Of a stretch of DNA of 40,420 bases, positions 33,196-38,519 are shown piece by piece. The position numbers and the translations under genes were made by a program. The DNA is from Promethearchaeia archaeon. Its GTDB lineage: Archaea; Asgardarchaeota; Lokiarchaeia; Sigyniarchaeales; SOKP01. Under the pieces are notes generated by a model. That model did not search any database and was not told where the DNA came from. It worked only from the letters and a program-made list of their open reading frames with translations. The first letter of the stretch is position 1. Each line of letters opens with the position of its first letter. The stretch spans positions 1 to 40,420 of the forward strand of contig JAHQWK010000010.1 of NCBI GenBank assembly GCA_029856145.1. The letters are read 5' to 3'.

Positions 33196-33453
33196 GTGGA
33201 TAAAGATAAAGTTAAACAAGTTCTCGAAAAAATACGTCCGCAACTCCAAATGGATGGTGGAGATGTAGAACTCGTATCAATCGAAGATGATGGAACTGTA
33301 AAAGTGCGTCTGATGGGCCATTGTGCAGGTTGTAAATAGCTCTATCTCAGAGCTGTTAATCAAATGCACGCCCAGCAGACTATAAAATTCGGTATCGAAC
33401 GCGCAATTAAACAATTCGTGCCCGAGATTAAAGAAGTAGTGGCTGTTCCATAG
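33196..33453 (+). CDS. NifU/Nfu-type Fe-S cluster carrier, join(33196..33333,33364..33453), 75 aa after splicing
   Basis: Hand translation from GTG 33196: MDKDKVKQVLEKIRPQLQMDGGDVELVSIEDDGTVKVRLMGHCAGC | MHAQQTIKFGIERAIKQFVPEIKEVVAVP*. Matches the NifU-C consensus (IRP-L-x-x-DGGDVE...G-x-CxxC-x5-T-L-K-x-GIE). Absent from the ORF track because of the in-frame TAG at 33337-33339. Confidence 0.93.
33334..33363 (+). other. 30-nt bulge-helix-bulge (tRNA-type) intron in nfu mRNA
   Basis: Exon helix GUGCA(33323-27)/UGCAC(33365-69); central helix GGUU(33328-31)/AAUC(33358-61); bulges GUA(33332-34) and AAA(33362-64); intron stem AAUAGCUCU/AGAGCUGUU with AUCUC loop. Cuts after the 2nd nt of each bulge give an in-frame TGT|ATG junction. 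Confidence 0.88.
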
Positions 33454-33683
33454 TAAATCAATACAAATATTTCCTAATTTTTTTATTTTAATATATTTTA
33501 CATTCTCTTTCCTTAAATCTTCCGAATATACTATATCGTTCCGAAAAAACAAGTAATTTAAGTTATAACTTAACTCATAGATTTTGGGATAAAAACCTAA
33601 TCCATATTTCGTTATATTTCGATTAAATTTTTCACATACTTGATGCACTGTTGAAAAATAAAAAAAGAAAATTTTTTTTGCTC

Positions 33684-34508
33684 TTAGTTTTGAAATTGTT
33701 TTAAATAATTCTTCCTTCCTTCTTCGTACATTTCTAACATTTCTTCAGGAGTAAAGTTTGCAAGAGCTTGATCTGGAATACCTGACTGCCCTGCCATTAA
33801 GCTAACATTCTCTGCATTCTTGGCCAACCATTTCATAAAAATAAATGCCGGTAAATCTTGCTTTTTTGTGACTTCAAGATACTTAAAAAACTCAGCTTCA
33901 GCTTTATCGAGTTCTCCAATATCGAAATAACTCCAACCTAACTGGTTTCCTAAATTGGGTTGCCATCCATTTCGTTCAATTTCTAGACTTATTTTATTTA
34001 TATCTTGTTTCAGTTTTTCAGGATCCTTTTTATCCAATGGTTTAGGCTCTTGAATAGTTGGTGTTGATTCACCTTCGATAAATCCGAAATCTCTAGCTAC
34101 TGCGTATGAATGTCCATAAAATCTCGCATTTAATCTCATGATTGTTTCAACACCAAACTTTTTGATATCTGATAACTTTACTGTTCTTTTTAAAGGTTTT
34201 AATTGTCCTGTTTTATAGGATTTTTTCCACTGTTTTGGTTCTCCTGACCAAATCCAAGCTAGTTTCATTTTTTTAGGTGTGATATCATATACGATGTTAT
34301 AGTCTAATTTTCCATGTGATAATTTAAATTCCACATAGAATTCTCTATCAATATCTTTTTTCGTTTTATCAGGAAATACATGATTTATAAATGTATAATC
34401 TATATTCTTTGCTTGTTCTCCAAATCTAACTTCCCACATTTCTTTTGATTTCTTTAAATAATCTTCATTTAAGAAATAACTTACATAGCGTGTATTTTCA
34501 GAACTCAT
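33684..34508 (-). CDS. hypothetical protein with one TPR-like motif
   Basis: 274-aa ORF; 'NQLGWSYFDIGELDKAEAEFFKYLE'. Confidence 0.7.
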   Translation of the reverse strand: MSSENTRYVSYFLNEDYLKKSKEMWEVRFGEQAKNIDYTFINHVFPDKTKKDIDREFYVEFKLSHGKLDYNIVYDITPKKMKLAWIWSGEPKQWKKSYKTGQLKPLKRTVKLSDIKKFGVETIMRLNARFYGHSYAVARDFGFIEGESTPTIQEPKPLDKKDPEKLKQDINKISLEIERNGWQPNLGNQLGWSYFDIGELDKAEAEFFKYLEVTKKQDLPAFIFMKWLAKNAENVSLMAGQSGIPDQALANFTPEEMLEMYEEGRKNYLKQFQN

Positions 34509-34748
34509 CTTTTTTGGTTTTCTAATTTTTTTAAAAATTTATAATGTGATTTATTTTAGCTTTGATTTTAAATCTTTACATTATATAGAAATTAACCCTT
34601 TAATCTCTCCTTTTATAATTCCTCTTCTAGATATAACAGCAAAATTTTAAGAGTTGGATAAGATTTTATAAGAAAAGATAATAATGAATACAGAATTTCC
34701 TTCATATAATATATATTAAAGTTATCTATCATCATAATCAGATTTTAA

Positions 34749-35135
34749 ATGAACTCCAAAGAATTTATTGAAAAATTGAATGAAGCTCAGGAACTTCTGC
34801 AACAAGAAAATTACAAAGAAGCAATTGTTTTAATTGAACAAGTAAAAGAATTAGAAAAAAAAGGTAATTTCGATTATAATCTCACACATAGATTATACCA
34901 ATTCGATTCTAATTCTCGCTCACTATATAATCAACAAATAATTCTTAAAATTGTTAGAGAATTATCAATACAGTATAAGGTTATTAGTTTTCAAGAATTA
35001 AATCAAGTATTAAAAGCTAAAGAGGAGTTAAATCTTACCGATGATATACTAAGAAGAGAGATTGAACTTTTAATATTGAGGAATCAGTTACCTTGGAGAA
35101 TTAATAAAAATACTATTATTTTAAAATCCAGTTAA
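34749..35135 (+). CDS. small helical + winged-helix protein, PCI-domain-like
   Basis: N-terminal helical hairpin, then 'YKVISFQELNQVL...LRREIELLILRNQLPWRINKNTIIL'. Confidence 0.6.
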   Translation: MNSKEFIEKLNEAQELLQQENYKEAIVLIEQVKELEKKGNFDYNLTHRLYQFDSNSRSLYNQQIILKIVRELSIQYKVISFQELNQVLKAKEELNLTDDILRREIELLILRNQLPWRINKNTIILKSS

Positions 35136-35279
35136 AATAGGAAGTGTTTTAAGAATATATTAACATCCGTTTTTGAGCCCAAAATTAAGAAGATATAAAT
35201 TCATGAACTTTTTCTTTTTCAATATCTTAAGCAATTAATTATTTATTCGTTGAGTAAATACTTTTAGTATAAATTTAAA

Positions 35280-35552
35280 ATGATTCAAGAGAATGAGTTA
35301 ATTACTCTTATACTTTGCTTGGTAGCACTATTCTTTGCCATTAGTAATTATGTTAAATTAAAATCATTACCAGGTTTAAAGATTTTTATAACTTCTTTTA
35401 CTTTATTTACGATGGGTTGGTTTTTTACGGTTATTGAAGGAATTATTTTTGAAGAAGTATTTAATATTATTGAACATGTTTGTTATATTTGTAGTTCACT
35501 TACGATGTTCATTTGGGCTATAGTATTTTTCAAAAAGAGGGGTGAAAATTGA
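35280..35552 (+). CDS. small 3-TM membrane protein
   Basis: Three hydrophobic segments; 4-nt overlap with the kinase gene. Confidence 0.75.
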   Translation: MIQENELITLILCLVALFFAISNYVKLKSLPGLKIFITSFTLFTMGWFFTVIEGIIFEEVFNIIEHVCYICSSLTMFIWAIVFFKKRGEN

Positions 35553-36547
35553 ATTTAATAGGGGTTCTTGATTTCTTTGTTTTCAGTATAACACTTGCAT
35601 CATTTAGTGCTATCTTAATAGGATGGAGAAACCAATTTTCTATAACCACTAGATTATCATTGATAGCAGTACTTTTCATAACCTCCTTCTATTATTTAAG
35701 TAATTTCTTAGAATGGTCAGGGATTAGCGATATTTTTGTAATTGTTGAAGATTATATAGCGATCTTGGCACCATTAGCTTGGTTTTTCTTTATATATACC
35801 TTTTTACAGAAAAACAGCGAAAAAAACCTGCGAGAGAATCAAAAGAATGTAGAAGAAGCGTATAGATACACAGAATTCTATAAAGATTTATTTACTCATG
35901 ATATTAGAAATATCCTTCAGAATATTTTACTAGCTAATAATTATATTGAGCAATTCAACAATGACCAAGATAAATTAGAGAAATTACCTGAAATTTGTTC
36001 ATTAGTTAAAGAACAAATATTAAGAGGAGAAAATTTGATCTCAAACGTCACCAAACTCTCTGAGATAAGACAATCACCTGTTGCGATTCAAACTGTAGAT
36101 CTTAAAAATATTCTTGAGAAAACTGTTGAAAATATAAAGAAATTATATGATCACAGAAATTTTGTTGTACAAATTCCAGATAAAAAATTATTGGTAAAAG
36201 CAAATGATTTACTTGAGAATATCGTTGAAAATATTCTGGTTAATGCAGTTATGCATAATAATAATGAACCTATTGAAGTCTGGATAAAAGCATCAAAATA
36301 TAAACTCAATCAAACCAATTATATAAAAATTGAGTTTATCGATAACGGCATTGGTATTTCAGATGACAGAAAAAAAGAAATTTTTATTACACGTGAAGAA
36401 GAGGAACACAAATTTAGAACAGGTTTAGGTTTATCTCTCATTAAAAAGGTTGTAGAATATTATAATGGCAAAATCTGGATGGAAGATAGAATTAAAGGAG
36501 ACTACTCCAAGGGAAGTAATTTTATCTTACTGATTCCCGAAGGCTAA
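35549..36547 (+). CDS. membrane sensor histidine kinase
   Basis: 3 TM; H-box 'FTHDIRNILQ', N-box 'ENILVNAVMH', G1 'DNGIGI', G2 'TGLGL'. Confidence 0.92.
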   Translation: MNLIGVLDFFVFSITLASFSAILIGWRNQFSITTRLSLIAVLFITSFYYLSNFLEWSGISDIFVIVEDYIAILAPLAWFFFIYTFLQKNSEKNLRENQKNVEEAYRYTEFYKDLFTHDIRNILQNILLANNYIEQFNNDQDKLEKLPEICSLVKEQILRGENLISNVTKLSEIRQSPVAIQTVDLKNILEKTVENIKKLYDHRNFVVQIPDKKLLVKANDLLENIVENILVNAVMHNNNEPIEVWIKASKYKLNQTNYIKIEFIDNGIGISDDRKKEIFITREEEEHKFRTGLGLSLIKKVVEYYNGKIWMEDRIKGDYSKGSNFILLIPEG

Positions 36548-36605
36548 GATATTTTTCTTTACTAACTTGTAATTTGAGAAAAAAATCTTGGTTTTTTTAA
36601 ATCTA

Positions 36606-38519
36606 TTAATTTGCAAGTAATAAATCTCTTTGTTCCTCTATCTCTGCAAGAAAAAGGTCTACAATTGCTAACCATTTGTTTTTTGAATCAAAATCGCTAA
36701 TAATTTTACTTGTTAATTCCTTTCCTAGCTTAAGATTTTGAATTGCTAATTCATTATTTTCAAGTGCTGTATAACAAATTCCAATTTTGATATAAGTCTG
36801 ATGGATAAACCAATCATCAGAATCAATTTCTATTGCTTTTTGGAACTCTTCTATGGCTTTTTCATACTCTTTAAAGGTTATTAAGATTTCTCCGTAAGTA
36901 TCGTGATATATTCCTTTTTCTGGTTCACTTTCTATGAGTCCTCGAAGAATCTTTAAAGGCTGTTGTTTTTTACCCAAATAAGATAACCAATATGCTTTAT
37001 AATTATGAAGAGAATTGTCTTTAGGATATTTCTCAATTAATTTTTCAATAATTTCTAATCCTGCTTCTAAATTTTTATCTTTTTTAAGAGTATATGCCTT
37101 TTTTATCATAATATCAATTTCTTTTTCAGGAAATAATTCCATCATTTTCCCTAATACCGTTAATACATCACTATATTGGTTGAAATAGAGTAGAATTCGT
37201 ATTTTTGAATTATATAATTCATAATTACTCGGGTTAATTTTGATTTCTTTATCAATTTCTTTAATTTTATCTTCGTATTGAGACACTAATGTTTCAGAAT
37301 TCTGGGATTGCATAATTTTAGTCATGTTCTGCCAAATTATTCCTTCTAGTTTATCGTAAGTTTCTTTTAATTCCTTTTTTGTCTCAATTTTATAAGCTAA
37401 ATATTTTATATATCGCGGTAAAAATTCTCTCAATGATCTCTTGAAATGCTTATGGAATATCATTTCGCAAATTTCTTCAAGAATATCATCTATAATAGAA
37501 TTTAAGCTCCCAGACCTACCAAATTTTTCTAAATATTTGTTTGTTGCAATATGTTCTTCAGTAATAGCTCGAAAGATCTTCTCTAGTTTTCCATCTGAAT
37601 GGAAATAATAATATTTATCTGGAGAAAATTCTAATTTAAAGAACTTTAAGTCATATAAATCGCTCTCTACAATCTCATTTACCCAAAAATAAAGGACTCT
37701 CTTTTTAATTGTATAATATCTCGAAAAATCCTCAAAAGATAGATAGTCAGGATAAAAATCAGGATGATTAATTGATATAAAGAGGAAAATTTTATGAAAA
37801 TCCTCTTCATCTTTCAATATTGCTTCAACTTTTGAATAATTCAATTTTAACACATTATTGAGAAATCTAAATTTAACATAGTCATCAGTTATTTTGAATT
37901 TTTCAAAAAACTGTGATGTCTTTATAGTAATTTCATCAATCCGTTTTCTTTCCTCTTCTAAAATTGTTTGCCTGTCTAAATCGTATTGTTGAAGAATCTT
38001 CGAATATTCTGATTTTCCTGATTGAGTAATTAAATATCTTTTATTCTCCTTGATGATAAATCCTTTTTGGATTAATAAACTTAGACTTTTTGATAAAGAT
38101 GATTGATTTATAGAAAATGGCTCTTTAAGAAAATCAGATCTTTTACAAAAACCATTATTATAAACCATCCATAGAATCCAATGGGAATAATTCCTCCCGC
38201 TTTTTAAAATGATTTCAGGCGGATAATTTAACCTTCGTTCCTTTTTTCCTATTTGGGATAACTCATTAAATTTCTTTTTCCCTTTTGGAGTTATTCTATA
38301 TTGTCCTCTCGCAAACTTTTCAATAAATCCTTTAAAGATTAATTTTGTGAAATGACGTGATAATGTGGCTATGGGAATTTCAATTGGTTTTTGCTCAAAA
38401 TTAGACCATTCACAACTTTCATTATTTGCCAGCATCCAAAGAATTATATGGTCATAATTTATTCTTTGTAGTTTCGAGGGGTTGAGAATCTCTTCAGAGG
38501 GATAATTTATTTCTCCCAT
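36606..38519 (-). CDS. tandem winged-helix + TPR-repeat protein (putative regulator)
   Basis: Two N-terminal repeats ('NYDHIILWM...KGFIEK...YRITPKGK' and 'NYSHWILWM...KGFIIK...YLITQSGK'); C-terminal TPRs ('YHDTYGEIL...YEKAIEEFQKAIEI'). Confidence 0.85.
   Translation of the reverse strand: MGEINYPSEEILNPSKLQRINYDHIILWMLANNESCEWSNFEQKPIEIPIATLSRHFTKLIFKGFIEKFARGQYRITPKGKKKFNELSQIGKKERRLNYPPEIILKSGRNYSHWILWMVYNNGFCKRSDFLKEPFSINQSSLSKSLSLLIQKGFIIKENKRYLITQSGKSEYSKILQQYDLDRQTILEEERKRIDEITIKTSQFFEKFKITDDYVKFRFLNNVLKLNYSKVEAILKDEEDFHKIFLFISINHPDFYPDYLSFEDFSRYYTIKKRVLYFWVNEIVESDLYDLKFFKLEFSPDKYYYFHSDGKLEKIFRAITEEHIATNKYLEKFGRSGSLNSIIDDILEEICEMIFHKHFKRSLREFLPRYIKYLAYKIETKKELKETYDKLEGIIWQNMTKIMQSQNSETLVSQYEDKIKEIDKEIKINPSNYELYNSKIRILLYFNQYSDVLTVLGKMMELFPEKEIDIMIKKAYTLKKDKNLEAGLEIIEKLIEKYPKDNSLHNYKAYWLSYLGKKQQPLKILRGLIESEPEKGIYHDTYGEILITFKEYEKAIEEFQKAIEIDSDDWFIHQTYIKIGICYTALENNELAIQNLKLGKELTSKIISDFDSKNKWLAIVDLFLAEIEEQRDLLLAN

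Follow-up and report, generated by a model that had tools for sequence, protein, structure and literature searches.

A short BHB intron with an early stop codon in the nfu gene of a Lokiarchaeia genome, probably removed by routine splicing

The nfu gene described here lies on the forward strand of a 40,420-nucleotide stretch of DNA from a Promethearchaeia archaeon (contig JAHQWK010000010.1), hereafter called the window, and runs from a GTG start codon at position 33196 to a TAG stop codon at 33453. Its product contains a NifU domain (Pfam PF01106, E 1.2e-23) with a CxxC motif, which assigns it to the Nfu/NifU-C Fe-S carriers, and a close ortholog matches the solved Nfu domains 2z51, 1xhj and 2m5o. 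Exon 1 (33196..33333) comprises 46 codons including the GTG start and ends with the CxxC motif CAGC. It is followed by a 30-nt insert (33334..33363), which consists of one bulge base, a 9-bp stem with an AUCUC pentaloop, a 4-nt helix strand and two bulge bases, and by exon 2 (33364..33453) with 29 codons plus the stop. An earlier note on this DNA had described the insert as a multiple of three with UAG as its second codon, and its coordinates and reading proved exact: the in-frame UAG (TAG, 33337..33339) stops the unspliced frame after 47 amino acids. This peptide ends in CAGCK, and the product without the insert has 75 amino acids. As the note had also stated, the short form keeps the CxxC motif and loses the C-terminal part; the 29 missing residues align with the second half of the solved NifU/Nfu domains and are presumably a helix and a strand of the fold.

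A search of the genome found no second copy of nfu. The reading that ends after 47 amino acids recurs on 24 contigs, and the identical 30-nt insert is present in all ten of those shown, so an assembly error can be dismissed as its source. In public gene calls, this Nfu appears as a fragment of 47 amino acids, and no protein identical to the spliced 75-amino acid form was present among those retrieved. One public assembly calls a gene of 123 amino acids on the opposite strand (33277-33648, minus), which overlaps the 3' half of nfu; this antisense frame was rejected, as it is not open in relatives. In one complete genome from the same taxonomic order, a decayed second nfu with two stops adjoins an intact nfu (L033, G044:C1:3652388-3653077).

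The bases 33323-33369 form a canonical hBHBh' structure with an outer helix of 5-6 bp and an intron stem of 9 bp. In the outer exon-exon helix, the 5' arm (33323..33327) pairs with the 3' arm (33365..33369). The exon strand of the central helix, GGUU (33328..33331), pairs with the intron strand AAUC (33358..33361), and this 4-bp helix is flanked by two 3-nt bulges on opposite strands, GUA (33332..33334) and AAA (33362..33364), as is characteristic of the archaeal BHB motif. The remainder of the intron is a hairpin (33335..33357), whose stem pairs 33335-33343 with 33349-33357 around a loop at 33344-33348. The cuts predicted after the second base of each bulge, at 33333/33334 and 33363/33364, result in the sequence CAGC-MHAQQ, which is the exact junction found in intronless orthologs of 89-96% identity. 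The fold has a z score of -3.59, and none of 200 shuffled sequences folds equally well; over the 47 nt, the canonical BHB has an energy of -15.7 kcal/mol, and the minimum-energy fold lies slightly lower at -17.2 kcal/mol. A scan of the genome for BHB motifs inside interrupted reading frames, which the earlier note had proposed, gave a divided answer. If hits were restricted to motifs of at most 50 nt with a constrained energy of -12 kcal/mol or lower, whose removal rejoins the reading frame, nfu was the sole short canonical BHB in 3.55 Mb, and six decoy bulge geometries gave none. Scans of the genome without the reading-frame filter, or with relaxed helices, showed no excess of the motif over decoy geometries. 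As the unfiltered motif is not enriched by itself, the case for the nfu intron rests on comparison. Rfam gave no match around the nfu gene. The nfu intron displays every BHB-intron feature that can be tested.

Ten different introns were recovered at the same site of nfu, with lengths of 29, 30, 31 or 32 nt and divergent sequences. Across these ten, 94.7% of the cells in predicted pairs are paired, and two-sided changes occur in 11 of the 19 pairs. The covariation value is 0.53 compared to at most 0.15 for slid controls, whereby the shuffle ignores relatedness and the structure was derived from one of the aligned sequences. The central helix is paired in 97.5% of cells, and every one of the nine pairs of the intron stem has changed on both sides. 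The third pair of the central helix is U-A in seven introns and C-G in three, and it switches together with the wobble base of an exon glycine codon. Beyond the fold and a loose pentaloop, no sequence conservation was found among the ten nfu introns. Their first stop is located at codon 1, 2, 4, 9 or 10 and can be TAA, TAG or TGA, and six of the ten are not a multiple of three. Of 36 truncated Nfu proteins, 30 terminate no more than one residue from the CxxC motif. Exon 2 differs from that of the intron-bearing relative L412 by ten synonymous and no nonsynonymous codon changes and from that of L411 by 11 and two, respectively, and judging from these codon counts it is under purifying selection. 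Some strains keep inserts that lack a stop. Two proteins with ten extra residues at this site (P0160, P0170) and three at a second nfu site (P0165, P0169, P0172) are known from protein sequences alone; all five are 86 amino acids long, and P0169 carries Gln at the position of the stop in the G018 intron. No longer match for their source DNA was found among the best 80 GTDB loci. According to these sequences, the early stop is favoured, but not required.

Among 46 genomes of the genus that gave a hit for nfu, 43 are free of any insert, and two others are interrupted at the second site instead. This second site is located after the sequence LQMD and holds inserts of 29-31 nt. With two further genomes from a wider Asgard sample, it is occupied in a total of four, which represent three genera (L031:234-263, L032:3144-3173, L416 and L417). 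An insert at this position would truncate Nfu before the CxxC motif, at 20-22 amino acids. The site next to the CxxC motif is occupied in many lineages. In a tree built from 105 nfu exon sequences, copies with and without the intron are intermingled, a common clade of the intron-bearing ones is rejected, and even close neighbours disagree; since the gene is short and the rows were partly picked by truncation, gains are indistinguishable from losses in this tree. A regulatory circuit that is maintained would hardly be expected to depend on an intron as labile as this one.

The nfu gene is not the only interrupted gene of this genome. The earlier note had suggested that further apparent pseudogenes of Asgard archaea, interrupted by short inserts with a stop, could be spliced, and this suggestion is supported: at least eight further single-copy genes, encoding uL11, uS3, Elf1, RnhB, aIF2-gamma, PyrG, UppS and mevalonate kinase (mvk), contain such inserts and are probably spliced, and the resulting count of nine with nfu is a lower bound. 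For seven of these eight, those checked, no intact second copy was found. In the gene for uL11 (G000:C28:14768-14741, minus strand), a 28-nt BHB insert shifts the frame; the relatives compared (L121-L150) have three insert sites of 36-37, 36 and 28 nt, all of which are filled in G064 and G004, and in roughly half of 123 genomes of the family, the N-terminal domain of uL11 is either split or only partly present. The Elf1 gene (G000:C18:41846-41815, minus strand; relatives L151-L180) has a 31-32-nt insert within its CPEC knuckle. TGA comes first in all 16 distinct copies of this intron while the remainder varies, with covariation at the third pair of the helix (A-U, U-A, G-C). In the uS3 gene (G000:C8 near 31453, minus strand; L193), the insert has 30 nt, contains a stop and forms a relaxed helix; G062 shares it and has another within the VIGKGG motif. 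BHB-like inserts of 30-31 nt are located inside signature motifs of rnhB (G000:C18:61155, plus strand), aIF2-gamma (C5:34200, plus), mvk (C3:203065, plus), pyrG (C23:64816, minus) and uppS (C3:195615, minus); these five assignments are based on the insert, its BHB-like fold and the motif restored in the sequence, rather than on an alignment with intronless orthologs.

Most of the inserts are 28-32 nt long and form a stem of 8-10 bp, often with an AUUUC-like loop. A length of 30 nt is therefore the usual size in this family rather than an in-frame design. Judging from these comparisons, the nfu insert belongs to a family of 28-37-nt BHB mini-introns in this lineage of the Lokiarchaeia (Promethearchaeota), which evidently appear and disappear at conserved motifs in protein-coding genes. 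Genomes vary in which of their genes carry introns, and few further mRNA introns were found in about 100 kb of other conserved regions compared. Ribosomal proteins also showed in-frame gaps with no stop in their acidic or variable segments, but these lacked a consistent BHB and were dismissed as ordinary indels, and the five ThiF/E1 genes of the genome have no internal stop. The nfu intron is not a copy of another intron of the genome, as its closest look-alike has at least eight mismatches in 30 positions. Several other observations were made in the course of the analysis. A 30-nt BHB-like candidate hairpin with a perfect central helix lies between two weak reading frames (G000:C32:34945-34974, plus strand), and a coding region of L231 (near 2565, G071:C16) has a 31-nt insert relative to G014. 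ARAGORN reported only 19 tRNA genes for the genome, several of them mis-parsed, probably through non-canonical introns. A tRNA-Sec gene is located at C8:12915-13007, and a 2.5-kb stretch, possibly a mobile element, occurs three times with 88-95% identity (C8 about 34500-37000, C28:5441-7931 and C9:646483-648965).

The position of the stop codon follows a common pattern. At 10 of 13 sites, the first stop falls within codons 1-3 of the intron when read in frame, compared to 2 of 26 in the two alternative frames (Fisher p = 2e-5, with 0.19 expected from shuffles), a count that is inflated since several sites were found because the frame is broken; of the five sites found only by length or an alignment gap, four have an early stop as well. 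Across these sites, the early stop appears to be a selected, class-wide trait rather than the product of chance. As it is common to translation and nucleotide genes, it is not about iron. Most likely, it serves as protection against unspliced mRNA, a purpose that we infer. A similar excess of in-frame stops in the short introns of ciliates has been read as a guard against mis-splicing or retained introns (PMC5014332).

The genome encodes the enzymes expected for such a splicing reaction: two EndA genes (PF01974; C11 and C24) and one gene for RtcB (PF01139; C18), the tRNA-type ligase of the HAC1/XBP1 comparison. The nfu motif fits EndA as the predicted nuclease. Since the fold covaries, the junction is exact, exon 2 is under selection, EndA and RtcB are encoded and there is no second nfu, the insert is very probably a real intron that is spliced, as the earlier note had assumed. 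The nfu pre-mRNA would fold into the BHB, EndA would cut after the second base of each bulge, and RtcB would join the exons. The outcome would be the normal 75-amino acid Nfu carrier, made in a routine step that does not respond to an Fe-S signal. Ribosomes that reach an unspliced intron would halt at its entry due to the early stop and release a short peptide only, which would allow the hairpin to form again and be cleaved. In this way, cutting could proceed while translation follows transcription, and the harm from unspliced RNA would be limited. Routine removal of the nfu intron, combined with a selected class-wide early stop, is considered the best explanation of the locus and a likely one.

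Three other readings were weighed against this one. It is highly improbable that the insert is not spliced at all, so that nfu would be a pseudogene or depend on read-through of the UAG or on ribosomes that bypass the hairpin. The evidence on splicing is at the level of DNA, and the stopless variants could be translated as an insertion of ten residues; however, purifying selection acts on exon 2, the exon-intron pairing covaries, inserts of this kind also occur in essential single-copy genes, and the antisense frame is not kept in relatives. Read-through of the UAG was rejected, as it could not rescue the inserts of 29, 31 and 32 nt at this site, in which the frame is shifted and the stop can also be TAA or TGA. 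The earlier note had proposed that the intron is a dedicated on/off switch, which ties the output of Nfu to iron or redox state in the manner of HAC1/XBP1. The early stop of most same-site introns, with truncated proteins ending at the CxxC motif, and the occupation of the CxxC-adjacent site in many lineages would fit such a switch, and a role as negative regulator has been proposed for the cbf5 intron (PMC2738675), whose function was still unknown in 2020 (PMC7714728). However, most relatives lack the insert and close kin differ in its presence, while its length, frame and stop position vary down to stopless forms. Inserts at the second site truncate the protein before the CxxC motif, the same design is found in housekeeping genes such as those for uS3, aIF2-gamma, pyrG and uppS, and neither a conserved intron sequence nor a nearby Rfam match points to a regulatory element. 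The note had named a non-conserved stop as evidence against its proposal. Evidence of this kind was obtained in part: the codon-2 UAG and the multiple of three are not conserved, and an early stop is enriched, equally so in housekeeping genes. A switch specific for Fe-S delivery thus appears quite improbable.

A broader form of control was also considered, according to which all intron-bearing mRNAs share a bottleneck at EndA and RtcB, so that stress would lower them together and nfu would only be a passenger. The targets would be translation, nucleotide, lipid and Fe-S genes, in which early stops would give a clean shut-off. RtcB ligases require metal and GTP and can be sensitive to oxidation, at least nine core genes of one genome need the same two enzymes, and early stops occur class-wide, all of which speak for this reading. 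On the other hand, the set of intron-bearing genes differs among genomes, which is more in keeping with turnover than with a regulon that is maintained, and few mRNA introns turned up in the conserved regions compared. This reading is regarded as unlikely; routine and stress-sensitive splicing predict the same DNA. In its most far-reaching version, which is doubtful, Loki-type Asgard archaea would splice many core mRNAs with tRNA enzymes, the rule of a stop at intron entry would couple translation to splicing, and if oxidative or metal stress lowered the activity of EndA or RtcB, translation, nucleotide and Fe-S genes would be shut down jointly. If true, this would represent a prokaryotic precursor of regulated mRNA splicing without a spliceosome.

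Routine removal of the intron has consequences of its own. It would mean that a lineage near the origin of eukaryotes has at least nine coding-sequence introns per genome, which are gained or lost between close kin and in which early stops are favoured. This provides a testable prokaryotic case for the spread of short introns and for their tolerance under coupled transcription and translation. Fragmented Nfu calls and a broken uL11 domain in about half of the family also affect completeness estimates, marker-gene trees and claims of gene loss. A switch for Fe-S delivery would be more striking; the comparative evidence argues against favouring it.

In the HAC1/XBP1 systems, the stress-activated nuclease IRE1 cuts two stem-loops in the mRNA of one conserved transcription factor, and Trl1 or RtcB joins the exons. 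The nfu case resembles them in the predicted protein-only cutting and joining of an mRNA, in the RtcB-type ligase and in an unspliced form that gives no active protein. It differs in its predicted nuclease, the housekeeping enzyme EndA, in its BHB motif and in its target, a carrier protein; moreover, most relatives lack the intron. An intron and coding outcome conserved across the lineage would be expected of such a system; here, 43 of 46 genomes lack the insert, and where it is present it has 29-32 nt and a stop at codons 1-10 or none. Nor is there a single signalling target, as the design recurs in the genes for uL11, uS3, Elf1, rnhB, aIF2-gamma, pyrG, uppS and mvk. To our knowledge, no decay pathway of the nonsense-mediated type exists in archaea. 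The introns of ciliates are similar in their length of about 25-35 nt and their over-representation of in-frame stops; however, they are spliceosomal and linked to nonsense-mediated decay (PMC5014332).

The literature searched, which mostly did not extend to subscription papers, contained no Asgard mRNA intron and only the cbf5 intron as an archaeal case within a coding sequence. In a preprint concerned mainly with Jordiarchaeia and Atabeyarchaeia, BHB introns in Asgard tRNA genes are described as gained repeatedly, alongside two EndA paralogues (bioRxiv 10.64898/2026.10.13.758758). They share the motif and the predicted enzymes with the nfu intron, and their splicing in Asgard cells is likewise still predicted; however, this preprint deals with tRNA genes only and does not mention mRNA or cbf5. 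In 2020, the cbf5 intron and an intron in a 5' UTR of Haloferax were the only mRNA cases reported (PMC7714728). The latter, in HVO_1309 of Haloferax volcanii, is also a BHB intron cut by EndA in an mRNA, but it is located in the untranslated leader and leaves the reading frame unbroken (PMC7714728). The closest relative in kind is the intron of the cbf5 pre-mRNA, which has 16-44 nt and is found in Desulfurococcales and Sulfolobales of the Crenarchaeota (Watanabe 2002; Yokobori 2009, PMC2738675). As in nfu, it is a short intron in the coding sequence at a key motif with EndA cutting after the second bulge base, its presence is patchy, some copies are in frame, and a regulatory role has been proposed, but not shown (PMC2738675). 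The splicing of cbf5 was shown by experiment, whereas that of nfu is predicted here from DNA. Furthermore, cbf5 is a single gene with a single intron site, whose history comprises one presumed gain and few losses (PMC2738675), whereas the Asgard introns affect at least nine genes per genome, with two sites in nfu and three in uL11, and their presence varies among close kin.
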